A DNA stretch of 64,000 nucleotides from a bacterium (GTDB taxonomy: Bacteria > Hydrothermota > Tepidihabitantia > SM23-42 > JAOAFX01): positions 438-64,437 of the forward strand of contig DAIRCK010000015.1 in NCBI GenBank assembly GCA_036796695.1, written 5' to 3'. Within the stretch, counting starts at the first letter, position 1. Each line of letters starts with the position of its first letter. Positions 1 through 62,797 of the stretch are shown here, one piece after another. A program made the position numbers and the translations under genes. The notes beneath the pieces are model-generated. The model saw nothing but the letters and a program-made list of their open reading frames with translations, searched no databases and had not been told where the DNA came from.

Positions 1-218
1 CCTTGAGTAATTTCAAAGCTGGCCTGGCGTTGGGACAACCTTTGAAATATAAAAATCTAATTGTCATATTTAACTACGATTTTTCATAACGGCTTTGCGT
101 ATGAGCGGTGACGGAGTTTAAAGTAATCGCTCGCCAAAATACAGGAGCAATAAGGCAAAGAGCAAACCTTGACACTGCCAAAAACCTGCAATTGCTTACA
201 CACTTCGTTAGGAACAGT

Positions 219-800
219 CTATTTTTCCAATAGTTTTGTTTGAATTTTATCAATCGTCGTTTCAAGTTTATCAAGATTAATGCTATAAGTTTTAGCGCCT
301 GATTTTCTGAGCTGTTCAATATATGAAACAATTCCATTATACCCATCTTCCATTTCCTTTATTTCATCTTTAAAATCATTTCTAAGCTGAACTTGTGAAC
401 CAAGTTTTATTAAAAGCTCAGGTATTTTATCAAATAATTGTTGGTTCAGTTTCTTTTCACTACCCATGTTATTCTTTCTTCTAAGAATTGCTATTTTTAA
501 AGAAGTGGCTATCTGGTATGCTTCAACTTTGCTATTAATTAAGGTCTTTTCAAGTTCATATTTAATATTTAATTCGTTCTTATAATCTTCAATTTTTTTC
601 AAATATTCTAATTTTACCGATTCAACTTTCTGTGTTAGAAGTTCAATATCTTTCCTCGTCGCATTTATTTCGCTTCGCACTTTTACATAAGTTGTCAAAT
701 AAATTATAATTGAGGCTAAAAAAACTTTTAACAAAAAGATAATTATACTTAAAAGACTGACATGTTTCAACTTTGTTATTAAATCTTGAATCAGTTTCAT
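219..800 (-). CDS. hypothetical membrane-anchored coiled-coil protein (193 aa)
   Basis: ATG start at 800 (rc cat 798-800). Hydrophobic N-terminus, then heptad-rich K/E/L sequence. No recognisable catalytic motif. Confidence 0.45.
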   Translation of the reverse strand: MKLIQDLITKLKHVSLLSIIIFLLKVFLASIIIYLTTYVKVRSEINATRKDIELLTQKVESVKLEYLKKIEDYKNELNIKYELEKTLINSKVEAYQIATSLKIAILRRKNNMGSEKKLNQQLFDKIPELLIKLGSQVQLRNDFKDEIKEMEDGYNGIVSYIEQLRKSGAKTYSINLDKLETTIDKIQTKLLEK

Positions 801-840
801 AGTGCTATATTTATTTTAATAATTAGTAGGAATAATGTTT

Positions 841-1014
841 GCGGATAAAGTAAGATACCAAAACGAAGCGTAGGCAATTTGGGTGAGGCTGTGCAAAAGC
901 CGAACCGTTTATCCGCTGTTATGTGCCCCGAGCCGATAGGCGAGAGTGCAACGTGGCAAGGAAGCCGAAGGCTTCCGCAGAGTTCGAAAACCTGCCGTAA
1001 ATTATGTTGTTGCC
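841..1014. repeat. composite structured repeat, copy 1. Module A is a hairpin GCGGATAAA..TTTATCCGCTGTTA with a GGCAATTTGGG loop core. Module B is TTCGAAAACCTGCCGTAAATT..GTTGTTGCC.
   Basis: A 9-bp stem at 841-849/908-916 encloses a loop containing ggcaatttgggtgaggc. Module B at 984-1014 is the reverse complement of 3541-3599. The palindrome ggaagccgaaggcttcc lies between the two modules. Confidence 0.5.
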
Positions 1015-1066
1015 GTAGTTTTTTCTTACTTTCAGTCATCTCATTTTCTCCGTAAGGGCGGGGACT

Positions 1067-2224
1067 TTAATAAATTATTTCTTGAAAAATAAGATTATTA
1101 TCTTCTAACTCATACTCAATATATTTTATAGGCATACAACGATTGTTCTTCTTATTGAATTGTTTGAAACTATCTATAATTCTTGTATAGTTTTCTGATG
1201 TTTTGTTGGATATTTTTTTAGAAATTAAGACCGGCTGTACATCGCTTATTCTATTAGGGATATAATATTGCTCTAACCAATCAACATATCTTTGAATTTG
1301 AATTACATTTTCAGTACTTGCTTCAACGGATTTTAGTTCAATAGGTAATATAATTTTGATATTTCCATTAACCAAAGAAAGCATTACATCTATTCTTTGC
1401 ATTCCTACACCACAAGAAACTTCATTGCCCAGCCATTCGAAACTCAAACCATTAAGCAAACTATTATCCAAACTTTTATTAGTTCCTCTACCAATATTTT
1501 GGACAATATACGCCTGTAAATGAGTTTCAAAAGCTCTATTATCTTTATATTTTTTAATTAATCTCGGAAGAATGTTTATTTTTTCTTTTCTCCCTGAATA
1601 ATTGTGTGTAGTATTGTCCTGATTTATTTCTTGAGTTTGGGCATTAAAAGTAAATTTATCCCCTGAAAGTGTTTGGCGATTATTTTTATCTCTCAACAAT
1701 TTAAAAAGTCTTTCGCTTTCATATATTGTAATCATCGTATTGCCACGATTACCTTTGAGTTTTCTATAAATTAAACTCCAAAGCATTTGATTGGGTGATT
1801 GAATATATTTAATTTCATCTAATGCTTCCCATTCGGTAACACCTTTTGGGTAAACTTCAAAAGGTTCAATTAAAGTTCTGAATGTTAAAGACTTCTTTAG
1901 TTCTTGTTTTAAGAATTGATGTGAGTCGTTGTTGTCCAAAAAGGATAAATCTTCTTTAGCTTTAAAAATTCCATAGAATTTACCCTCCCAAACTTTTTTG
2001 GAGTAATTTTGTTGGAGGTAAAAAATAACAAAATCTCCCTTTCTGATTCTTTGTGAATCAGCAATCATTCCAACCAGATTATTCTCGGTTGTATGATTTA
2101 AGGATGTATCAGGATTGTTATTAAAATCAATAATGTTATCTTTTGCGCCTGTCCCTGCAAAAAGATATTCCAAATGATATTTGAATGTGGTTGTATCTAC
2201 AATAAAAACATGTGTTGTAGTCAT
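1067..2224 (-). CDS. putative restriction endonuclease: N-terminal EVE/PUA-like domain plus C-terminal PD-(D/E)xK nuclease (385 aa)
   Basis: ATG at 2224. The N-terminus has GDFVIFY..VWEGKFYGIFK, which is EVE/PUA-like. The C-terminus has RIDVMLSLVNGNIKIILPIELK, a D..ExK nuclease motif. Its start overlaps the stop of the adjacent methyltransferase (ATGA). Confidence 0.55.
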   Translation of the reverse strand: MTTTHVFIVDTTTFKYHLEYLFAGTGAKDNIIDFNNNPDTSLNHTTENNLVGMIADSQRIRKGDFVIFYLQQNYSKKVWEGKFYGIFKAKEDLSFLDNNDSHQFLKQELKKSLTFRTLIEPFEVYPKGVTEWEALDEIKYIQSPNQMLWSLIYRKLKGNRGNTMITIYESERLFKLLRDKNNRQTLSGDKFTFNAQTQEINQDNTTHNYSGRKEKINILPRLIKKYKDNRAFETHLQAYIVQNIGRGTNKSLDNSLLNGLSFEWLGNEVSCGVGMQRIDVMLSLVNGNIKIILPIELKSVEASTENVIQIQRYVDWLEQYYIPNRISDVQPVLISKKISNKTSENYTRIIDSFKQFNKKNNRCMPIKYIEYELEDNNLIFQEIIY

Positions 2225-3366
2225 TTTTTCACTTTTTTAAATAAAAATATATATTCGTGTTTGAAAATATAAAATCCACCAACCAGAGCCCTATATCTCC
2301 ATAATTCTTTCTGATTCATTTTCCCTTTGGTCTCTTCAAAATTTTTAACTATTATAGACTTTAGTATATACCCTCTTTTTAAAACTTCGTTCATAACATA
2401 AAATCCCAATGGAATCCATTCACCTTGCGAATACTTGTCTCCTATTACTACAGCAAAGTATCTATTTTTATCCAAAATATCATAAGTGTTATCTACAACT
2501 TTACCTAATAAATGTAAAAATTCATCAACACTTTTAGCGTTTGATAAATCTTTATTATTCTTACTAAATTTTATAATATCCCAATAAGGAGGATGCATTA
2601 TCAAAAATTGCACAGATTTAATATTTCTTTTTTCTAATTCCAGCTTAAAATTCAATTCTGTACTATCAGCATTGATAACTTCAATTCTAACATTAAATTT
2701 ATTTTCCTCGTTAGATATGTTTTTATTTGCTATGTCTACTACTTCTGGTGATAATTCAACGCCTACTCCATTTCTGCCTAATCTTTTGCATTCAATTAAA
2801 GTTGTTCCACTTCCAAGAAAAGGATCTAAAACCCATTCACCCTGTTTAGTGTATCTTCGTAAAAATTGGTTTGGAATTTGCGGTATAAAATTACCCCAGT
2901 AACCTGCATTGTGGGCTCCTGATTTGTCTCGTTTATCTAAAATCCATAAGCTTTCTGTCAGTATGTCACTATATTCTTTCCAACGGTTGAGATTTAAATC
3001 GTTTATTTTACTTGTTTTAATTTCTGTTAAACTTTTCTTTAAACGATTAATATAATATTTTGCTCTTTCAATTGTTTGTGCTTCTACTATTTGGTTTAAA
3101 TCTTCCAAAAGTACCTCTTTATTAACTTTCGCGGTGTCACCATTGTGAGAAATATTTAACAACCCAAAATTATCTTTTCTTGGATTTCTAATAATCTCAA
3201 TAATTTTATGTATTTCAAATTTTATTTTATTATTTTCTTGTAAATCTTCAATTTTAGATAAAAACTCTAAAAACATGTTTTGATTTATTATAGTTTCTTT
3301 TCCCCAATCTATTTTTTCATCAAAGCCACTATTAAAATTAAATAAGGTAATATTATTGTCTTTCAT
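2221..3366 (-). CDS. DNA methyltransferase (N6-adenine or N4-cytosine class), 381 aa
   Basis: Motif I VLDPFLGSGTT is followed by motif IV IMHPPYW. There is an N-terminal extra domain of about 150 aa. ATG at 3366. Confidence 0.8.
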   Translation of the reverse strand: MKDNNITLFNFNSGFDEKIDWGKETIINQNMFLEFLSKIEDLQENNKIKFEIHKIIEIIRNPRKDNFGLLNISHNGDTAKVNKEVLLEDLNQIVEAQTIERAKYYINRLKKSLTEIKTSKINDLNLNRWKEYSDILTESLWILDKRDKSGAHNAGYWGNFIPQIPNQFLRRYTKQGEWVLDPFLGSGTTLIECKRLGRNGVGVELSPEVVDIANKNISNEENKFNVRIEVINADSTELNFKLELEKRNIKSVQFLIMHPPYWDIIKFSKNNKDLSNAKSVDEFLHLLGKVVDNTYDILDKNRYFAVVIGDKYSQGEWIPLGFYVMNEVLKRGYILKSIIVKNFEETKGKMNQKELWRYRALVGGFYIFKHEYIFLFKKVKK

Positions 3367-3540
3367 ATTTAGCCACCATTATATAAAGTTAAGAGTTATC
3401 GTTATTATAAATCTTTTTGTTTTTAAGTCCATAAAAAGCCATCGCCCGTGAAAATAAGAAAAAAATTTTGTTTAACTTTCGTTAGATGAAAGTTGCATAG
3501 CAATTTCATTGTCTCTTTTCCTCCTATGAAGTTAAATGAA

Positions 3541-3670
3541 GGCAACAACAACATCATCATAATTTACGGCCTCCTTTCCGTAAAAGGCAGGTTTTCGAAT
3601 TGCACATAACGTCTTGCGGATAAAAGAGGTTGCCGAAGGCAATTTGGGCGAAGCCTTTTATCCGCTGTTA
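3541..3670. repeat. composite structured repeat, copy 2 (module B then module A)
   Basis: 3541-3599 is GGCAACAAC..AATTTACGGC..GGCAGGTTTTCGAA, inverted relative to 984-1014 and carrying two short insertions. 3616-3670 is a hairpin GCGGATAAAAG / CTTTTATCCGC with loop aggttgccgaaggcaatttgggcgaag, then CTGTTA. The orientation of A matches copy 1. Confidence 0.5.
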
Positions 3671-4164
3671 GGCGATGTGCTGCTTGAAGATTCGTGCTTA
3701 CCACTCAACCACTTCCTCAACACCTCTGCCTTCTCTATCCTACCCAGCTTCAGATATGCCTGATATTCATATTCTAAAGAAAGTACGGGTACTTGTATTC
3801 CCTCCAGCTCTATAACCCGTTTGTGTCGCTCCAAATCCACAGGGTTCTCCCAACTTCCATCCTCAAGCCGCTTCTGAATGTCTCCCATAATTTCTACCTT
3901 GATTCCATCAATAATCAGTTCACCAAAGTGCGAGCGGATTCTCTCTGTGGAGAAGAATTTAACCCTTTTGGTCACAAACTCGGAAAAGAGGCGATCAATC
4001 TCATAGGCTCCCTCCCGGTCAGTTTGGATGTCAATGTCATTAGATTCGACAGGCACACCTTGAAGTGCAAAACCGAGGCTGCCTGTGACTACCCAATTCA
4101 CGTTCCTGTCGTTCAGTCGAGCATATATCTTTCGAAGGATGTTAAGGTAGACTGGCTCAATCAT
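3658..4164 (-). CDS. minimal nucleotidyltransferase (Pol-beta superfamily), paralog 1 of 3
   Basis: Has WVVTGSLGFALQG..NDIDIQTD (hG[GS]..DhD). The track ORF runs to 4269 with a GTG start and would translate through palindromic DNA. An internal ATG at 4164 with RBS AGGTGA is the preferred start. The C-terminus overlaps repeat copy 2. Confidence 0.55.
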   Translation of the reverse strand: MIEPVYLNILRKIYARLNDRNVNWVVTGSLGFALQGVPVESNDIDIQTDREGAYEIDRLFSEFVTKRVKFFSTERIRSHFGELIIDGIKVEIMGDIQKRLEDGSWENPVDLERHKRVIELEGIQVPVLSLEYEYQAYLKLGRIEKAEVLRKWLSGKHESSSSTSPNSG

Positions 4165-4303
4165 TCTCTCACCTCTGGTAGCATTTCGCCTAACTCGTTC
4201 ATATCCGAACCTGGTTCGGATATCCTTCCAAAATTGGTGGTATAGACGAACTTGGTTCGGATATACCACCCTCTAACTGAACTTTTGTTTGAAATAATGT
4301 TCC

Positions 4304-5416
4304 TCATGTTTTGTCCCCCTGTTTTTGTTTTAAATCCAGATTGTCCAACGGACTGTTAAATTTACCAATCTGCTTTGTACTAACATGAGTATAAACTTCA
4401 GTGGTTTTGCTACTTTTGTGCCCAAGTATCTCCTTAATATACCTTAAATCTACACCACTCTCCAAAAGATGTGTGGCAAAACTATGGCGCAGGCTATGAA
4501 CTGTTGCCTTTTTTAAAATTTTTGCAGACTCACAGGCATTAGAAAATATCTTTTCAACAGTCCGTGTTGTTATATGCTTTTCTTTTTCTTGTCCTAAAAA
4601 TAACCACTTTCTTGGTCTATATTCCTGCCAGTATTCTCTCAACACCTCCAATGCGGTCTTTGAAAGCATCGTATACCTATCTTTCCGTCCCTTTGACCCT
4701 TTTATGTGTATCAACATCCTTTTACTATCAATATCTTCAGGTCTCAATTTTACTACCTCTCCAACTCTTAATCCAGCAGAGTATACCAGCATAAGAATTG
4801 CCTTGTGTTTGATATTATCCATCGAATCAAGAATTTTTGCAACTTCTTCCTTGCTTAAAACTACAGGAAGTTTTTTATCCTTGCGGGGTCTTTTGACTTC
4901 ATAAACAAATTTCTTTTTTAACATTGTGCCATAGTAAAACTTCAGAGCGTTAATTGCCTGATTTAAAGTAGAGGTTGATGCTTCTTTCTTTTCCGATAAA
5001 TAGACCAGATACTCTTTTATGTCATTATCAGTTATTTCTAATGGGTTTTTGCGAGTAAAATTCCGAAAATCTCTATTGAAGTAAATATAGGCTTTAACGG
5101 TCTTATAACTGTATTTTCTTGAAAGAAGTTCTCTACGGAGGTCTTCAAATTCCCCCTCACCCTTACCCTCTCCCACAAGGGGCGAGGGAAATTCTTTAGT
5201 CTGTAATGCAGGGTCTATGTAGACTTTTTCACCTTCAAAGACCTCCAAAATTTTCTCCAGCGTTCCATTAGAGTTTGGAAAACCCCAATATTTTCCTCCA
5301 GGATGCCATCTGTGCCCTTCTATTGTCCTTATTTTTTCCACAAATTGAGGATTATATGAAAAAGAAACCATTAAATTATTTTCTCTGTCTTTTAGGATTT
5401 TAATTTTCAAATACAT
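4304..5416 (-). CDS. tyrosine site-specific recombinase/integrase (XerC/D-phage integrase family), 370 aa
   Basis: C-terminal HSLRHSFATHLLESGVDLRYIKEILGHKSSKTTEVYTHV gives the R..H..R..Y catalytic tetrad. A SAM-like core-binding domain is present. The N-terminal extension of about 90 aa resembles an arm-type DNA-binding domain. Confidence 0.85.
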   Translation of the reverse strand: MYLKIKILKDRENNLMVSFSYNPQFVEKIRTIEGHRWHPGGKYWGFPNSNGTLEKILEVFEGEKVYIDPALQTKEFPSPLVGEGKGEGEFEDLRRELLSRKYSYKTVKAYIYFNRDFRNFTRKNPLEITDNDIKEYLVYLSEKKEASTSTLNQAINALKFYYGTMLKKKFVYEVKRPRKDKKLPVVLSKEEVAKILDSMDNIKHKAILMLVYSAGLRVGEVVKLRPEDIDSKRMLIHIKGSKGRKDRYTMLSKTALEVLREYWQEYRPRKWLFLGQEKEKHITTRTVEKIFSNACESAKILKKATVHSLRHSFATHLLESGVDLRYIKEILGHKSSKTTEVYTHVSTKQIGKFNSPLDNLDLKQKQGDKT

Positions 5417-5581
5417 AATTTTATTTTATACATTTTTAGTTAAAAGTCAAGGAGAATTTTATTAAATATTCCAGCACAAAAAACACCGTTTGTCAATTAA
5501 CCGAACTTTGTTTAATTCTTATTATTTATACCAATTTTGATACCTTTCTTTGATTTTGAAAGAGAACTTATCTCTGAACTG

Positions 5582-5621
5582 GGAGCACGGTGAAAATTTT
5601 TTCGCGGTTGGAAACCGCTCC
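5582..5621. other. conserved nested hairpin motif, copy 1: GGAGCAC..TCGCGGTT-GGA-AACCGCTCC
   Basis: Nearly identical to 15614-15657. Inner stem is GCGGTT/AACCGC and outer stem is GGAGC/GCTCC. Lies upstream of the integrase and downstream of the 5758-6234 gene. Confidence 0.4.
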
Positions 5622-5757
5622 TAAAGAATTATGTACAATAAAGTGCACCATTTTCGAGCGTCTAAATAAGGAAATTCTTCGTCCGCTAAACTGTGGCGGA
5701 TTCGGATTTGGAATTTGTATAAAAATTTCTTAAAGTCTAATACCTGAACATACTTAT

Positions 5758-6234
5758 TTAAATCTGTGATTTCAGGTATTTTAAATCTTCCAAATCCTTT
5801 GGCCTTTTAAGTATTTCTTTATTCTGGATTAATTCGTTCAGCCCAATATAAAAAATTTCAATGACCTGCTTTTTTACTTTTATCTTCTCAATTTTCTTAT
5901 TTCGCCATGCATCAGAAAAATTTACACCGGTGATTTTGTTCATAAGGTCAATTCTGTTTGGCGGAACACCAAACTGGATTATAATGCCTGGTTCTGCCAA
6001 TTCTTCTTTTCTTTCAATCCCTGGTATCTTTCCTTCCCAAAATTCATTTATGGCTTTAAATAAACAATCAATATTTTCAGGAGTATTCTCAAAAAAGAGA
6101 TCAATATCACCTGTCAGGCGGGCATATCCATAATGAATAACAGCCTCACCTCCGACAATCAGATACTTCACAGAGAATTTGTAAAGAAGATGAAGAAATT
6201 CTAATATATCCTTTGAGAAGTTGCTGACTTTCAT
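5758..6234 (-). CDS. minimal nucleotidyltransferase, paralog 2 (158 aa)
   Basis: Has IVGGEAVIHYGYARLTGDIDLF, the G[GS]..D.D NTase motif. The C-terminus KILKRPKDLEDLKYLK is shared with the other paralogs. Its start overlaps the stop of the upstream small ORF (ATGA). Confidence 0.6.
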   Translation of the reverse strand: MKVSNFSKDILEFLHLLYKFSVKYLIVGGEAVIHYGYARLTGDIDLFFENTPENIDCLFKAINEFWEGKIPGIERKEELAEPGIIIQFGVPPNRIDLMNKITGVNFSDAWRNKKIEKIKVKKQVIEIFYIGLNELIQNKEILKRPKDLEDLKYLKSQI

Positions 6235-6425
6235 TTTTCATTCTGAATGCGTTTTTTAGAAAAAACTCTACTTTCTCTAACATCAGGTCTCTTTCTACCA
6301 TACACCCTGATTTTAATTAGGTATGCAATCTTTTGCCTTTGCTCTGGTGTTAGCGCTCTATGTTGCATTATGTCATATTCTTCTGCGTCTTTAAAATCTT
6401 TTGCCTTATGAACAATTCTTTTCAT
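6231..6425 (-). CDS. small basic partner protein of NTase paralog 2 (64 aa)
   Basis: Translationally coupled to the NTase. Its tail IRVYGRKRPDVRESRVFSKK is homologous to the tail of the 17326-17571 partner. Confidence 0.45.
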   Translation of the reverse strand: MKRIVHKAKDFKDAEEYDIMQHRALTPEQRQKIAYLIKIRVYGRKRPDVRESRVFSKKRIQNEK

Positions 6426-10515: not shown

Positions 10516-12063
10516 TTACAATGGTATATTTCCGTGTTTTCGTGGAGGATTTGTATCACGCTTGTTTTCAATCATCTCAAACGCCTCAATTACCCTTGGC
10601 CTTGTCTCGTGCGGTCTAATGACAGCATCAATATAGCCTTTTGACGCAGTCACAAATGGATTGGCAAACTTGTCTGTATATTCATCTATCAGTTTCTTTT
10701 CCAACGCCTTTGGGTCTTTTGCCTCTTTGAGTTCTTTGCGGTATAGAATTTTCACTGCGCCATCAGGCCCCATCACTGCAATCTCAGCACTGGGCCAGGC
10801 AAAATTTATATCCGCGCGAGTATGTTTTGAACTCATAACACAATAGGCACCACCATAAGCCTTTCGAGTAATAACTGTAACACGGGGAACAGTCGCTTCA
10901 CAGAAGGCATATAAAAGTTTTGCCCCGTTCTTTATCACACCACCCCATTCCTGGGCAGTGCCAGGTAAAAATCCTGGAACGTCAACAAAGGTCAAAATTG
11001 GAATATTGAAACAGTCACAAAAACGAACAAATCTTGCACCTTTCATTGCTGAATCACAATCCAGAACACCAGCAAGAACCACAGGCTGATTTGCAACAAT
11101 ACCAATTGACCTGCCGTTTAATCGGGCAAAACCAACAATTAAATTCTTTGCATAATGTTTATGAACCTCAAGAAACTCACCATTATCAACCACCCTTTTT
11201 ATTACCTCGGACATATCATAAGGTTTTGTCGGACTATCCGGAATTATCTCATCAAGTTCTTTGTCCTGACGATTTATATCATCTGTGCAATCAATAGCAG
11301 GTGGGTCCTCAAGGTTATTCTGTGGAATATATGATAATAATTTTTTAATAAGCTCAATACACTCAACTTCGTTTTCTACAGCAAAATGGGCAACACCGGA
11401 TTTTTCATTATGAACCATTGCACCACCGAGTTGCTCAAATGTCACATCCTCATGGGTCGCAGCCTTTACTACATCAGGGCCAGTCAAAAACATATATGAG
11501 CCCTGAACCATTATCACAAAATCAGTCATCGCTGGTGAATAGACTGCACCACCAGCACAGGGCCCCATAATTGCTGAAATCTGTGGCACAACACCTGAAG
11601 ACAGAACATTGCGCAAAAAGACATCGGTATAACCGGCAAGACTATCTACCCCTTCCTGAATGCGTGCCCCACCAGAATCTTTAAGACCAATGATTGGACA
11701 ACCCATCTTCATCGATAAGTCCTGAAGTTTACAAATTTTCTCTGCATACGCTTTGGACAAAGAACCACCAAAGACTGTAAAATCTTCGGCAAAAACACAA
11801 ACCGGTCTGCCATTTATTCTACCATAACCTGTCACCACACCATCTCCAAGAATCTTTTGTTTATTCATATCAAAATCTGTGCAGCGGTGGGTAACAAACA
11901 TATCGGTCTCACGAAATGTGCCTTTATCAAGTAGCAAATCTATGCGCTCACGGGCAGTGAGTCTTCCTTTGTCATGCTGTGCCTTAATCCTTGCCTCTCC
12001 CCCACCAAGTAATGCCTGTTTTTCAAGCTCTTCGAGATGTTTCAATTTGTCTTTTATCTTCAT
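10516..12063 (-). CDS. pccB: acyl-CoA carboxylase carboxyltransferase subunit (PccB/MmdA, 12S family)
   Basis: Carboxyltransferase domain similarity throughout. The track start is a TTG at 12087. An ATG at 12063 preceded by GGGAGG is the likely start. Confidence 0.85.
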
Positions 12064-13209: not shown

Positions 13210-13321
13210 TTACACCTCCTCATTAAAAAGTTAACGGATAATGGTTTATGGGCATTGCAGCCCGTGAAAAAGAATTTTTAATTATCATTTGCTTTGAAAA
13301 GTCTATATTTCCGTATACCGT

Positions 13322-13762
13322 TCATTTTCGCTTCTTTGGTTTCTTCTGGTTTGCCTTTGTAATTTTAACTTCCTTTTTCACATTATTGTTTATCCAGTCA
13401 ACAATTTCACTCGTTGGGGTTCCTGGACCAAAAAGTTTCTTCACACCCATCTTTTCAAGTTTTTTCATATCATCCAGCGGAATTATTCCGCCACCAATGA
13501 CAGGGATATCCGCTTTCTTCTCTTTAAGTAGTTTCAATATCTTCGGGAATATTGTCATATGCGCACCAGAAAGAATAGAAAGTCCGATGACATCCACATC
13601 TTCCTGTATTGCGGCTTCCACGATTGCCTCACAGGTTTGATGAAGTCCTGTATAAATAACTTCCATTCCTGCATCACGCAGGGCTGCTGCAACAACCTTT
13701 GCCCCACGGTCATGGCCATCAAGACCGGGTTTACCGATTAAGACGCGAATTTTTTTATCCAT
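13322..13762 (-). CDS. acyl-CoA mutase B12-binding small subunit (146 aa)
   Basis: Has [12 protein letters not shown], the DxHxxG cobalamin-binding motif. Rossmann-like B12 domain. RBS GGAGGT. Confidence 0.85.
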
Positions 13763-13783
13763 ACTACCTCCTAAAAAAGCAGG

Positions 13784-13836
13784 AATCGCAGTATCATTAC
13801 ATTCGCAGTATCGTGCCTATCGGCACTCGCAGTATC
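13784..13836. repeat. three direct repeats of TCGCAGTATC between the B12-subunit gene and the icmA-like gene
   Basis: Copies at about 13786, 13803 and 13827. Related inverted units TTCTGCGAA lie at about 13859 and 13893. Confidence 0.4.
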
Positions 13837-13938
13837 GCATTCGGTTCATAAAACCGTTTTCTGCGAATCTGCCGACGGTGATGATACTGGGTCTTCTGCG
13901 AACACGCCAAACGGTGTGGCGGGCGATCCTGCACTTTC

Positions 13939-15579
13939 TTAAAAAATGATTGGTTCATGATACACACCGAATTCTTCTTTCAAAGTAGAACACATCTCTC
14001 CAAGTGTAGCATATGCGCGGACACACTCAAGGATTCTGGGCATCAAGTTTTCACCATTTGCTGCTGCCTTACGCAGGTCTTTCAATTTTTCTTTTACTTT
14101 TGCGTTATTTCTTTCTTTCTTAACCTTCTTCAAACTCTTTATCTGTTCAATCTCAACTTCAGGCGGGATTTTTAAAATCTCAATATCTGGTTTTTCTTCT
14201 TCTTCAAAGATATTTATCCCCACATGGTATTTTTCTCTTTTTTCAATTGCCTGCTGATATTCATAGGCACTGCGAGCAATCTCTTTCTGGAAGAATCCTT
14301 TTTCAATTGCTGGCAATACACCGCCCAGTGCATTTATTTTATCAAAATACTCATAAGCCTTTTTCTCCATTTCATTTGTAAGGTATTCAACATAGTATGA
14401 ACCACCGAGTGGGTCAATTACATTTGCTACACCTGTTTCATAGGCAATGAGTTGTTGAGTTCGTAGAGCAATCTTCACTGCCTTTTCAGTAGGTAAAGCA
14501 TATGTCTCATCCATTGAATTCGTATGTAACGATTGAGTTCCACCGAGGACTGCGGCAAGTGCCTGGAATGCAGTTCGCACGATATTATTTTCTGGTTGCT
14601 GGGCAGTCAATGTGCATCCTGCAGTCTGGGTATGGAATCGCATAAGCCAGGAGCGAGGGTCCTGGGCATTATATTTTTCGCGCATCAATTTTGCCCATAT
14701 CCTTCGTGCCGCACGATATTTAGCAATCTCTTCAAAAAAATCAAGATGGGAATTAAAGAAAAAAGAAAGACGAGGTGCGAATTTATCAACCGGTAATCCC
14801 GCCTTTATTCCATATTCAACATAGGTAAATCCATTGGCAAGGGTAAAGGCGAGTTCCTGGATTGCAGTTGCACCGGCTTCACGAATATGGTATCCGGAGA
14901 TTGAAATTGTATTCCACTTTGGCACATTGTCTGAGCAAAAAGCAAGAATATCAGTTATTATTCTCATTGAGGGTCCAGGTGGATAAATCCAGGTTTTCTG
15001 TGCCTGGTATTCCTTTAACATATCATTCTGGATTGTGCCGGTAAGCATATGCGAAGGAACACCCTGCTTTTCACCAACTACAATATACATAGCAAGTAAC
15101 ATTGCTGCAGGTGGATTGATGGTCATTGAGGTAGAGATTTTATCAAGGGGAATTCCATCAAATATTATTTCCATATCCCTCAATGTATCAACTGCAACCC
15201 CGCATTTACCAACTTCACCGTGGGAGAATGGATCATCAGAATCTCTACCGTAAAGTGTAGGAAAATCAAAGGCAACAGAAAGACCTGTCTGTCCGTGCTT
15301 TAATAAATATTTATATCTCTTATTCGTATCCTTTGGTGTGCCCATTCCAGAAAACTGGCGCATTGTCCAGAGCCTGCCCCGATACATTGTAGTTTGAACA
15401 CCTCTGGTAAATGGGTATTCACCTGGATATCCGAGATCGCGTTCATAAACAAAATCAGGTATATCATCAGGGGTATATAGTGGGTTTAGTGGAATACCAG
15501 AAATTGTTGTAAATTTGTGGTCTCGCTCATTGCAAGTTTTATACTTTTGTTCCCATTGCTCTTTTTGCTTCTTAGACAT
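13939..15579 (-). CDS. icmA: isobutyryl-CoA-mutase-type acyl-CoA mutase large subunit (catalytic domain only)
   Basis: Paralog of 6432-7976. It has Phe (RQFSG) and Gln ([12 protein letters not shown]) where MCM has Tyr and Arg; this is the known ICM-versus-MCM signature. ATG at 15579 with RBS AAGGAGGT. The track start is a TTG at 15594. Confidence 0.8.
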
Positions 15580-15657: not shown

Positions 15658-15731
15658 AACTTTAGTTTTGCTACATAAAATCCATGGATAATCACTAATC
15701 AGAACACAGATTTCCGCAGAAAAATTTAATA

Positions 15732-16667
15732 TCATTTTTTATTAATTAAACTTCTTAATATTTTCTTTGCTACTTTATATGGGCTCAATTTTCTTTCAAA
15801 AATTCTTTCTACAAATCTATCAAGTTCTTTGTCGTCAATTACTGATTCGTGCAAATGTCTTCTTATTTCTGATTCTATAAACTCATGTATTTGATTTAAA
15901 ATGCGCAATTTTCTAATTTTCTTTAATTCGCCGCTATTTTTGAGATGATCTTCGTGCATCTTTAATGCCTTAATAAATTCATCAATGCCTGATTCATCTG
16001 TAGCAATTGTCTTCAAAATGGGTACACGCCAGGAAGTCTTAGGTCTTAAATCAAAAGCGAATTTCAATTCCATTAAAAGTGCATCACTCCCTTCGCGGTC
16101 TGCCTTATTTACCACTACGATATCTGCGATCTCCAACAATCCTGCCTTCATTGTCTGTATAGAATCACCTGATTCTGGAACAAGCACCACAACTTTTGTA
16201 TCACAGACCTGGGCAATATCAAGTTCTATTTGACCAACTCCAACGGTTTCGATGAGAATATAATCCATCCCTGCGGCATCAAGAACCAGAGCCACATCCT
16301 TTGTCTTCTTTGAAAGACCACCGAGGCTTCCCCTTGTTGCCATACTGCGGATAAAGACATTCTTCTGGAGTGCCAAATCGCCCATTCTTATTCTATCACC
16401 AAGCAATGCACCACCAGAAAATGGTGATGTTGGGTCAACGGCAATAATACCAATTTTGTGATTTTCTTTAAGCAATTTTTTTGCAATTGCATTGACCAGA
16501 GTTGACTTCCCCGCACCAGGAGGACCGGTAATACCAATTTGATATGCCCTGCCTGTATAAGGGGAAATTTTATCAAGGATATCTACTCCTGTATCATTTT
16601 CAACCAAACTGATTATCTTTGCAATACTGATTTTATCGCCTTTTAGAAGATTTCTTATCAAATCCAT
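15732..16667 (-). CDS. meaB: MeaB/ArgK-type G-protein chaperone of acyl-CoA mutase
   Basis: P-loop GITGPPGAGKST and VNKADREG (NKxD). Confidence 0.9.
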   Translation of the reverse strand: MDLIRNLLKGDKISIAKIISLVENDTGVDILDKISPYTGRAYQIGITGPPGAGKSTLVNAIAKKLLKENHKIGIIAVDPTSPFSGGALLGDRIRMGDLALQKNVFIRSMATRGSLGGLSKKTKDVALVLDAAGMDYILIETVGVGQIELDIAQVCDTKVVVLVPESGDSIQTMKAGLLEIADIVVVNKADREGSDALLMELKFAFDLRPKTSWRVPILKTIATDESGIDEFIKALKMHEDHLKNSGELKKIRKLRILNQIHEFIESEIRRHLHESVIDDKELDRFVERIFERKLSPYKVAKKILRSLINKK

Positions 16668-16829
16668 TTAAAACACCAATTTATTTTTAATATCTTCGGG
16701 AATTAATGCAATCGATCTCTTGTCTGCGTCAATAAAAGGAATCTTCTTTTCCTTAAGTATCCTCGTAAATTCCTGTAATAAATCTTTCTTCTCTTTTGCC
16801 ACTCTTTTAACAAATTCTTTTTTAGTCAT
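16668..16829 (-). CDS. possible small ORF (53 aa) translationally abutting meaB
   Basis: Reads MTKKEFVKRVAKEKKDLLQEFTRILKEKKIPFIDADKRSIALIPEDIKNKLVF. Its TAA stop is immediately followed by the meaB ATG. No clear RBS. Confidence 0.3.
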   Translation of the reverse strand: MTKKEFVKRVAKEKKDLLQEFTRILKEKKIPFIDADKRSIALIPEDIKNKLVF

Positions 16830-16855
16830 AATTTTGAAATGCAGAATGTAATTGC

Positions 16856-17350
16856 CTATTGGCCAAAATTTCTTTTCTTTAACTTATTTAACCAATATAC
16901 ATCTGCTCTATCTCTTTCTCGGAATGAGTTTTTTTTTGTGGCTATGAGTTTATTAATACTTAATACTGGAATTTTAATGTTACCTATCTCCTTAATTATC
17001 ATATCTTTGCTTGCCTCTTCATAATCTAATTGCCATAATTTTGAGATAAGGTCTATTTCAATTTCACCCGCAATTTTTACAGTCTGGTATTTTTTAATGT
17101 CACTCAATCTCAATTTTTTTATTTCAGGATTTATTGACTTTAAGGAATCTTTTATTTTTTTGGCATTCTCAATAGAAGGTTCAACAATAAAATCATAATC
17201 AATGGTTAACCTTTCTTGACCAGAAATTTCTTCAATTCCATGTAGTTTGCAGGCGTAGGCACCACAAACAACATATTTTACTTCATATTCATTAAACCTT
17301 TGGCAAATTTCTACGAATTGTTTATCTATCTTTTTATTAGTCCATCCCAT
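16856..17350 (-). CDS. minimal nucleotidyltransferase, paralog 3 (164 aa)
   Basis: Has VVCGAYACKLHGIEE..TIDYDFIV, a G[GS]..D.D-like motif. The C-terminus RERDRADVYWLNKLKK is shared with the other paralogs. Confidence 0.6.
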   Translation of the reverse strand: MGWTNKKIDKQFVEICQRFNEYEVKYVVCGAYACKLHGIEEISGQERLTIDYDFIVEPSIENAKKIKDSLKSINPEIKKLRLSDIKKYQTVKIAGEIEIDLISKLWQLDYEEASKDMIIKEIGNIKIPVLSINKLIATKKNSFRERDRADVYWLNKLKKRNFGQ

Positions 17351-62724: not shown

Positions 62725-62797
62725 TGGAGCAGACCAGAGTCGAACTGGCGACCTTCTCGCTGCGAACGAGACGCTCTCCCAACTGAGCTACTGCCCC
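62725..62797 (-). tRNA. tRNA-Ala (anticodon CGC)
   Basis: Minus-strand sequence GGGGCAGTAGCTCAGTTGGGAGAGCGTCTCGTTCGCAGCGAGAAGGTCGCCAGTTCGACTCTGGTCTGCTCCA. Cloverleaf with a G3:U70 Ala identity pair, anticodon loop TTCGCAG, and a T-loop TTCGACT. CCA is not encoded. Confidence 0.85.

Follow-up and report, generated by a model that had tools for sequence, protein, structure and literature searches.

In the present study, we analyzed a stretch of 64,000 nucleotides from a Hydrothermota bacterium (contig DAIRCK010000015.1 of assembly GCA_036796695.1), which is hereafter referred to as the window and in which a restriction-modification (R-M) gene pair is bracketed by two copies of a composite repeat made up of the modules A and B. 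We regard window 1-5416, read on the minus strand, as the start of an integron-like gene-cassette array, and the system behind it as integron-like with a non-IntI recombinase that carries a fused HARP-like domain, and not as a canonical integron; we estimate the probability of each of these two statements at approximately three in four. In a literature search that left most subscription journals outside, we found no description of integron-like arrays with a recombinase or site type of this kind, or, in the full-text literature, of a fusion between HARP and a tyrosine recombinase.

Every gene in window 1-6400 is on the minus strand, on which the recombinase is followed by a structured noncoding stretch, an ANT(2'')-type nucleotidyltransferase, module A copy 2, and module B, and then by the methyltransferase, the nuclease, module B', module A copy 1, and a 193-aa open reading frame (ORF). 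We propose that this order represents a tyrosine recombinase gene, an attI-like site, and cassettes that each comprise one or more genes and a structured attC-like site. The recombinase would most likely cut and exchange strands at G|TT of a GTTRRRY-type core; recombination between two sites would excise a cassette as a circle, circles would enter at the attI-like core, and the R-M pair (3609->836) would be one such mobile cassette. The only tyrosine recombinase in the window is the probable catalyst of these reactions. Its substrate may be the folded bottom DNA strand, as in integrons, and the HARP-like N-terminal domain may read the folded site in place of the I2 insertion of IntI.

Structured sites and cassette boundaries

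The initial annotation reported two copies of module A in the same orientation, and both are present: the hairpin GCGGATAAA...TTTATCCGCTGTTA with GGCAATTTGGG occurs as direct copies at 841-921 and 3616-3670 and nowhere else in the 64-kb window, while the full sites, read on the minus strand, exceed the extent first reported (Table 1). Short module patterns alone did not rise above chance in pattern searches of the window. A covariance model (R1), which was built from 9 homologous seed sites, recovered copy 2 with an E-value of about 1e-19 and copy 1 with one of about 3e-13, and matched nothing in the rest of the window at E<=1 with default filters. With two copies in 64 kb, both of which are within the array, module A is not a repeat of the REP/BIME or MITE type, and Rfam gave no match for the sites at the gathering score or at E<=1.

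On the gene strand, site 1 reads GCCTAAC-A-GCGGATAAAAG ... CCCAAATT-GCCTTCGGC-AACCT-CTTTTATCCGC-AAGAC-GTTATGT, in which the boxes R'' (GCCTAAC, 3673->3667) and R' (GTTATGT, 3610->3604) enclose an L stem of 11 bp (3665-3655 with 3626-3616), three loop motifs (CCCAAATT, GCCTTCGGC, and AACCT), and the 5-nt bulge AAGAC; the z-score of its DNA fold is -4.3 on the top strand and -4.8 on the bottom strand. Site 2 has the R'' box ACATAAC (924->918), the L stem GCGGATAAA/TTTATCCGC, and a degenerate R' box, ATTATTC (836->830). The consensus over about 60 sites, which range between 54 and 155 nt in length, is GCCTAAC/GTTAGGC, and an inverse core and core of the integron type (RYYYAAC / GTTRRRY) enclose the 11-bp stem. 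The spacers measure 1 nt on the 5' side and 5 nt on the 3' side, the L stem is without bulges, and the asymmetry of the site lies in the 5-nt bulge and in position 11 of the R stem, where a mismatch is fixed. The register of canonical attC sites, with 5-nt spacers on both sides, was rejected because the 'spacer' would then be paired.

Modeling of the fold by covariation, which the initial annotation had proposed, lent it clear support. Among 21 distinct sites, 83.6% of the stem cells are paired, as opposed to 64.6% after column shuffles and 30-41% with slid partners, and 19 of the 20 stem pairs have changed on both sides. The stem sequence itself is free (GCGGATAAA, GCGGGTATCTG, CGGTGTATGCG, and CCGGACATACG were all found), and conservation across the sites is seen in the motifs CCCAAAT and AACTT, which are unpaired, and in a second, smaller hairpin. 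The bottom (non-coding) strand folds better in 53 of 57 sites (-17.8 vs -15.4 kcal/mol, p = 2e-10), which is the basis on which we propose bottom-strand use in this system, and the mismatches are mostly A.C on the top strand, which corresponds to G.T on the bottom strand. This bias and the stability of the bottom strand together favor a folded DNA strand as the functional form and disfavor a function of the sense RNA.

Model R1 matched 25 sites in a first set of related loci (loci are numbered with the prefix L below), 18 in loci fetched with the nuclease, and 37 (E<=0.01) in an unbiased set of 80 loci from metagenomes, fetched through the recombinase alignment. In these 80 loci, all 37 matches are on the recombinase strand and 36 are downstream of the recombinase, even though the DNA available was 278 kb upstream and 150 kb downstream (binomial p = 1e-15). 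The modules were therefore found only in arrays linked to a recombinase; a scatter of modules unassociated with cargo or recombinases, which the initial annotation had named as damaging to its proposal, was not seen. In every locus, including the window, the recombinase gene is co-oriented with all cassettes.

In the window, the attI-like site, which immediately follows the recombinase gene, is composed of hairpin 1 (4236-4270), the CCAATTTTGG motif, hairpin 2 (4201-4223), GAACGA, and the core GTTAGGC (4194->4188), and the fold of this region has a z-score of -4.55. In about 20 loci, an element of the same plan (hairpin, CCAAAT motif, hairpin, GAACRA, GTTAkrC, GAAATTGC) comes after the recombinase gene, and the site includes four copies of a TATCCGAAC-type motif. 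Cassette content switches exactly at the attI-like site between near-identical genomes (L011 vs L012; L016 vs L020). The first pair, from WOR-3 metagenome-assembled genomes (MAGs), is 99.4-99.9% identical on both flanks and has unrelated first cassettes, each terminated by its own hairpin; identity ends at ...AACGA-GTTAGGCG and resumes at CC-GTTATCTGAA, and the recombinase and both flanks are common to three related WOR-3 MAGs at 99.4-99.9% identity. The second pair, Marinimicrobia contigs, parts immediately after the attI-like ...CCACGAGT|T (GAGT|T). L016 additionally contains direct copies of 211 bp (3502-3712 and 11224-11434; 97.6% identical) that consist of a 3' fragment of the recombinase gene and the attI-like site, and the cassette content of L020 differs from that of L016 after the second copy.

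The R-M cassette of the window was also detected in three other arrays (L015, L016-21, and L022-24) at 84-87% identity and with different neighbors. In L015, L016, and L022, the region of homology is bounded by the G|TT core (3612-3624) at its start and by a point within the cassette's own site (876-905) at its end, the flanks upstream of the copies are unrelated, and the orientation is identical in the four independent arrays. These results bear out the suggestion of recombinase-acted boundaries around an exchangeable defense cassette, with module A providing the sites. The two further suggestions made for these boundaries did not hold: a single orientation in four arrays argues against an invertible cassette, and sites that recur after every cassette, not just twice, argue against the att-like sites of one integrative island.

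Regarding the position of the crossover, an indication was obtained from the ends of 43 cassettes. In these, the 20-nt segment that terminates at R'' is complementary to the beginning of its own cassette, a stretch that physically forms the R' of the site before it, and not to the adjacent R' (9.8 vs 5.5 of 16 positions; Wilcoxon p = 9e-7; 34 wins, 4 losses). At the variable core positions 5-7, the match is with the own start in 0.84-0.89 of the cassettes vs 0.34-0.42 for the adjacent site; a mismatch is conserved at position 11 (complementary in 0.03), after which positions 12-16 are paired again. In the window, 15 of 20 positions at the 5' end of cassette 1, GTTAGGCGAAATGCTAC, are complementary to the flank of this cassette's own site, compared with 8 of 20 for the adjacent R'. 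Since this complementarity begins at position 5, the crossover lies 5' of position 5, and the bond is placed only to that extent because positions 2-4 are invariant. The complementarity of a cassette to its own end is the argument that first placed the integron crossover at G|TT, and the present data are consistent with a G|TT crossover, as in integrons. They also imply a circular, or at least end-joined, form of the cassette.

The recombinase family and related arrays

The recombinase consists of a HARP-like N-terminal domain (about residues 1-70), a variable linker, and core-binding and catalytic domains of the Xer/IntI type, which are nearest to those of XerA (5hxy) and IntI. It passed the NCBIfam XerA model NF040815 (233.9 bits, cutoff 220) and failed the integron-integrase models TIGR02249 (217, cutoff 265) and PRK15417 (160, cutoff 435). 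The best sequence match in the PDB was VchIntIA (2a3v); however, the alignment splits where query residues 262-278 (17 residues) face residues 180-238 of the chain (59 residues), and none of 43 aligned relatives has the IntI-specific insertion. A conserved N-terminal domain of about 70 residues, followed by the variable linker, was present in all of the relatives aligned.

This domain had been annotated as an 'arm-binding-type N-terminus'; an N-terminal domain does exist, while HARP-like is the better description of its nature. The HARP family PF07443 was matched by 24 of 28 N-terminal fragments scanned alone (best E 4.7e-7), among which the fragment from the window did not reach E<=1, and the N-terminal profile matched 4o66, the HARP domain of SMARCAL1, at E 0.22 in the PDB. 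An AlphaFold2 model of the domain (pLDDT 88.8) has the fold beta-beta-alpha-beta-beta-alpha-beta, for which Foldseek returned 4o66 (E 0.045, probability 0.91), the damage-recognition domain of XPB (probability 0.96-0.97), and, as other top fold matches, 6p66, 2fwr, and the C-terminal domain of T4 MotA. The SMARCAL1 HARP, XPB damage-recognition, and T4 MotA C-terminal domains are structure-specific DNA binders, with forks and distorted DNA as examples of the structures bound. Some proteins of 240-340 aa (P0349, P0361, P0382, and P0387) have two or three HARP-like N-terminal domains in tandem. The other matches of the N-terminal profile, which was searched against a representative library and gives a rough family size only, were mostly short fragments truncated where a contig ends, a pattern suggesting that assembly breaks are frequent within the conserved recombinase gene.

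The recombinase family is very large, with 60-80% identity across distant phyla, for which the names given by the sources include WOR-3, Nitrospirota, Acidobacteriota, Armatimonadetes, Thermodesulfobacteriota, and a Micrarchaeota archaeon. A contig scan with the single recombinase protein yielded 5 loci, and a metagenome scan with the recombinase alignment yielded far more, with more than 582 relatives among the matches listed. In L004, from a WOR-3 MAG, hairpins follow successive genes on the recombinase strand, and a hairpin-plus-core element follows the recombinase gene. L009 has an array of defense cassettes after the recombinase, each ended by a site, with three R-M systems, a GIY-YIG nuclease, and a McrA-like gene; the cassettes of L014 include GmrSD and HicAB. 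Degenerate site copies without good R boxes were observed just upstream of the recombinase in L004 (2998-3088), L009 (9873-9965), and L033 (1358-1460), and cassettes are also present upstream of these copies; the recombinase gene may itself be part of an array, or an array may have received it by insertion. In L022 (GCA_002327385), the R-M cassette follows a remnant of an attI-like site (hairpin and TATGAACAA-GTTAGAT, 4480-4570), there is no recombinase gene nearby, and the locus sits between RNase J and glycine-cleavage genes. This arrangement, an array without its recombinase, is analogous to clusters of attC sites lacking an integron-integrase (CALIN). Arrays of the present kind may already have been detected as CALIN arrays.

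Full-length relatives with about 40% identity occur on plasmids of cultured Bacteroidota. On plasmid NZ_CP041688 of Chryseobacterium sp. SNU WT5 (L105), the recombinase gene is followed by the attI-like CATATAAACAA-GTTGGGA, beyond which the array continues with ORF-less units, about 180 nt in length, and with gene cassettes; a long hairpin and GTTAyyy form the end of each. This array also contains, on the opposite strand, an IS110 transposase and a group II intron reverse transcriptase (13263-14264 and 15729-17045). In classical integrons, group IIC-attC introns target attC sites, to which the intron in the Chryseobacterium array may be a parallel.

The R-M cassette and the remainder of the array

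Module B was reported as inverted around the nuclease-methylase pair, and it is (983-1014 vs 3541-3599). The two arms share a perfect core of 14 nt, TTCGAAAACCTGCC (983-996) and GGCAGGTTTTCGAA (3586-3599), and beyond this core the match extends to an arm of 27 nt with 81% complementarity, copy 2 having insertions of 16 nt and 6 nt. The four independent copies of the R-M cassette keep both B arms, in which the 14-nt core alone is invariant. The cassette starts with G|TTATGTGC-AA-TTCGAAAACCTGCC..., which places the start of module B at cassette position 12, with the R' box and the conserved mismatch directly before it. At the other end, a conserved module of about 55 nt stands between B' and R''. 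Part of this module is the hairpin GGAAGCC-TTC-GGCTTCC (960-976), in which L016 shows a compensatory change (GGAAGCC/GGCTTCC -> GGTTTC/GAAACC).

When the circular junction of the window cassette was simulated, B and B' formed an outer closing helix on both strands. Other sites of the TCGGGG.ATAAC subclass have a GC-rich module of 30-60 nt at the equivalent place, and their outer arm pairs with cassette positions 12-25, over 16 nt in L025 and over shorter lengths in L004, L009, and L040. We conclude that B and B' are the two arms of one unusually long outer closing stem and not a recombination site, for which module B has none of the core-site features. On integration, the opening of the cassette circle at G|TT would bring the 3' part of the closing stem to the 5' end of the cassette, and this opening would be the reason why the halves of the stem are far apart.

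The gene calls made for the nuclease-methylase pair, the nucleotidyltransferase, and the tyrosine recombinase proved correct (PADLOC, Pfam, and NCBIfam), and the coordinates of all features are given in Table 1. From its 5' end, the R-M cassette contains module B, a promoter-like site, the methyltransferase, the nuclease, module B', the small hairpin, and its own 3' site. The start of the nuclease gene overlaps the methyltransferase stop by 4 nt, and the nuclease has 2670 relatives, many of which are 80-95% identical across phyla (by the names given in the sources) and always adjoin the methyltransferase. The promoter-like match before the methyltransferase (3431->3404) was not above chance in a promoter scan of the window, and promoter and terminator scans as a whole remained at chance level.

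Table 1. Features of the putative cassette array, with positions in the 64,000-nt window
Feature	Position	Strand	Basis
Tyrosine recombinase, 370 aa	4304..5416	minus	PF13495 + PF00589 (Pfam)
attI-like insertion site, directly 3' of the recombinase gene	4188..4270	minus	fold and comparative loci
Cassette 1, 584 bp: ANT(2'')-family nucleotidyltransferase and own 3' site	3610..4193	minus	
Nucleotidyltransferase coding sequence	3658-4164 (4164->3658)	minus	PF10706, 7.9e-33
attC-like site 1 (module A copy 2)	3596..3680	minus	covariance model, 83.6 bits
Cassette 2, R-M cassette, 2774 bp	836..3609	minus	homology to L015, L016, L022
Module B, 3' arm of the cassette's outer closing stem	3541..3599	minus	
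Type II DNA methyltransferase, 381 aa	2221..3366	minus	PF01555 2e-23; PADLOC MTase_II 4.4e-138
Putative restriction endonuclease, 385 aa, PD-(D/E)XK / NucS_C-like C-terminus	1067..2224	minus	weak NucS_C and YhcG_C matches
Module B', 5' arm of the outer closing stem	983..1014	minus	
attC-like site 2 (module A copy 1), the R-M cassette's own site	828..931	minus	covariance model, 58.4 bits
Cassette 3 gene, 193 aa, N-terminal hydrophobic segment	219..800	minus	
Candidate third divergent site (TCCTAAC ... GTTATGA) after cassette 3	76..220	minus	tentative

The 5' untranslated part of the R-M cassette holds two further elements. A 45-aa ORF (MMMLLLPSFNF..., 3422-3559, minus, 3559->3422) has its ATG and Shine-Dalgarno sequence within module B, the latter in the loop of a local hairpin (TTTACGG/CCGTAAA). 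A role of this ORF as a leader or regulator was rejected because neither its length nor its sequence is conserved in L015, and it is probably not coding; it could still affect the expression of the methyltransferase. A minimal palindrome at 3463-3495 (plus), TTTGTTTAAC-tttc-GTTAGATGAAAG, resembles fused R''/R' boxes in the opposite orientation and scored 13.4 bits (E 0.08) with the covariance model.

The nucleotidyltransferase gene of cassette 1 encodes 168 aa as called in L001, and the protein of cassette 3 had no match in Pfam, NCBIfam, or PADLOC. In an unfiltered scan of 7 kb, the candidate third site scored 13.4 bits (E 0.08), and it has the stem and R boxes without the loop motifs; it is unconfirmed, and its flank fits the adjacent R' better than the start of cassette 3. 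Beyond it, a further ORF has its start codon at 67->65 and continues past the window edge. Three assemblies break left of window position 1. Two independent Logan assemblies (SRR27457925 and SRR1986369; the ends of L001/L003) are 100% identical to the window and both end at one base, 54 nt left of window position 1 and inside the next ORF (MTIRFLYFKGCPNARPALKLLKEVLEEKGI...). A shared assembly break of this type would be expected from strain-level cassette variation or from a repeat.

On the other side of the array, a toxin-antitoxin-like pair (5758-6425, minus), consisting of a 64-aa ORF and a DUF6036/DUF2204 nucleotidyltransferase, fills the place between methylmalonyl-CoA mutase, which it directly follows, and the recombinase, which is immediately downstream; no attC-like site was detected beside this pair. 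A GGAGCGGTTTCCAACCGC...GCTCC hairpin is present at about 5590-5630. The sole Rfam match in the window is a tRNA gene at 62725-62797 (minus), which is unrelated to the array.

Alternative explanations and relation to known systems

Several features of the array could also be explained by a canonical integron, in which a divergent IntI and ordinary attC sites would be covered by existing definitions. The RYYYAAC/GTTRRRY boxes, the cassette logic, and the range of site lengths agree with this explanation, as do the PGAP product name 'site-specific tyrosine recombinase/integron integrase' and the rank of VchIntIA among PDB sequences. R''/R' boxes of the attC type and an attI-type entry point beside the recombinase gene are indeed found here; however, the IntI-specific domain, the fine structure of attC, and a divergent gene orientation are not. 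Since the IntI insertion is missing from 43 of 43 aligned members, the scores fall under both integron-integrase cutoffs, and an extra HARP-like domain is present, and considering the unequal spacers, the fully paired L stem, the loop motifs, the long R stem with its fixed mismatch, and the co-oriented gene, we consider a canonical integron to be quite improbable. A related proposal is that the same cassette system operates with a recombinase that acts on double-stranded DNA, in a Xer/dif-like manner or on a cruciform, at the stem, bulge, and GTTA core. The recombinase has a Xer-like core without the I2 element, which was reported to be necessary for the single-strand activity of IntI (PMC4792948, PMC7790495), and the four TATCCGAAC-type motifs in the attI-like site could be ordinary duplex binding sites. 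However, the free variation of the stems under conserved pairing, the systematically higher stability of the bottom strand, and the conserved mismatch at position 11 matter only if the strands fold on themselves, which argues against a duplex substrate and leaves this proposal unlikely.

It is very improbable that the hairpins function at the RNA level, as terminators, insulators, or the new structured RNA family that the initial annotation considered, with the cassette boundaries being coincidental. The sites are intergenic, co-oriented with the genes, and structured, their loops are conserved, and there is one terminator-like match inside site 1. However, the sense strand is the less stable one, no Rfam family matches even at E<=1, the pairing partners are kilobases apart in the linear array, the elements are missing from the other 59 kb of the window, and strain differences begin at the core. 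The inverted geometry of module B around two genes, together with its invariant 14-nt core, may be taken to indicate inversion sites for the R-M segment or the terminal inverted repeats of an R-M transposon. We find this scarcely credible, since the orientation is constant in the four independent arrays, there is no target-site duplication, every cassette copy retains the outer site context, B is at exactly cassette position 12, like the outer stems elsewhere, and the homology between copies runs past B on both sides, to the core and into the own site.

Some of our results weigh against the integron-like interpretation or against parts of it. Recombination products were not observed directly, and the array was read from assembled sequence. 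The covariance model matched in just 20 of the 47 loci having at least 700 nt downstream of the recombinase, which reflects either the narrowness of the model or the use of other sites by some relatives. The distal sites of the window are weak (the degenerate R' of copy 1; 13 bits for the third site), and part of this array may be decaying. L016 and L017 diverge within the L' (3' stem) arm, about 16 nt before G|TT, and homologous exchange between similar sites thus probably also occurs. Regarding the outer stem, changes in B' of L015 and L016 are uncompensated in B, and the family-wide signal beyond position 12 is modest (8.1 vs 7.1 in the control, p = 0.006), with just 2 of 42 cassettes exceeding the 99th percentile of the controls. 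The HARP assignment consists of profile matches and Foldseek E-values of 0.05-0.2.

Integrons are the textbook example of structure-specific, single-strand site-specific recombination, and the gain of a single insertion, the I2 helix, accounts for their descent from Xer-like enzymes. We lean slightly towards the view that the present family represents a second, previously unrecognized integron-type lineage, in which a Xer-like recombinase with a HARP-like domain instead of I2 recombines folded hairpins and shuttles defense and other cassettes among many mostly uncultivated phyla; the names given by the sources include WOR-3, Nitrospirota, Acidobacteriota, Marinimicrobia, Zixibacteria, Armatimonadetes, and a Micrarchaeota archaeon. 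If so, single-strand hairpin recombination would have arisen convergently, or a sister of the integron ancestor would have survived, and the evolutionary question of I2 would become directly testable because another solution on the protein side, HARP-like and without I2, would be available. Cassette capture would then be wider than integron finders report, since these require the IntI domain, and a large hidden route would exist for R-M, toxin-antitoxin, and resistance-type genes between distant phyla. The R-M cassette of the window shows 80-95% identity across several phyla. The plasmid relatives in Bacteroidota (Chryseobacterium) would provide an experimental entry point.

In comparison with integrons, the present system shares a recombinase beside an insertion site, followed by co-oriented cassettes that each end in an imperfect-palindrome site (RYYYAAC ... 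GTTRRRY), a crossover consistent with G|TT, cassette first bases complementary to the own site, ORF-less cassettes (L105), a content of R-M, toxin-antitoxin, and ANT(2'') genes, and variation cassette by cassette. It differs in that the recombinase has a HARP-like N-terminal domain and not the IntI-specific insertion and is co-oriented with the cassettes, whereas canonical intI is divergent from them and a Pc promoter reads into the array. Integron attC sites have a near-symmetric unpaired spacer (about 5 nt on both sides) and extrahelical L-box bases, in contrast to the 1 nt/5 nt spacers and unbulged stem found here; the conserved CCCAAAT and AACTT loops, the R stem of 16-20 bp or longer with a fixed mismatch at position 11, and the attI-like site with two hairpins and a CCAAAT motif also set the present system apart. 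The 'reverse-orientation' integrons of Treponema/Spirochaetota, which Coleman et al. are said to have described in 2004, reportedly have an integrase gene that is co-directional with the cassettes. The present recombinase gene resembles them in being transcribed in the cassette direction; however, reverse-orientation integrases are, by their description, true IntIs with an additional domain, which separates them from the recombinase of the window. Reverse-orientation integrons are also mentioned in PMC9668308, and the archaeal-integron paper itself states that the integrases of archaeal integrons carry the additional domain. Sedentary chromosomal integrons carry defense cassettes (bioRxiv 10.1101/2024.07.02.601686), and the arrays described here likewise hold R-M and other defense genes as cassettes (L009 and L014), with a different recombinase and site type.

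The core-binding and catalytic domains, and the XerA model that was passed, relate the recombinase to XerA, XerC/D, and XerH. Unlike Xer/dif and pdif, there is no 28-30-bp site of the 11-6-11 form with inverse flanking, and the sites are long hairpins of 54-155 nt in direct orientation; the location of the gene in a variable array and its 60-80% identity across phyla represent the behavior of a mobile element and not of a housekeeping resolvase. The 70 N-terminal residues resemble, in their predicted fold, the HARP domain of SMARCAL1 and the damage-recognition domain of XPB, a similarity that is weak by E-value, and differ from both in that the domain is fused to a tyrosine recombinase.

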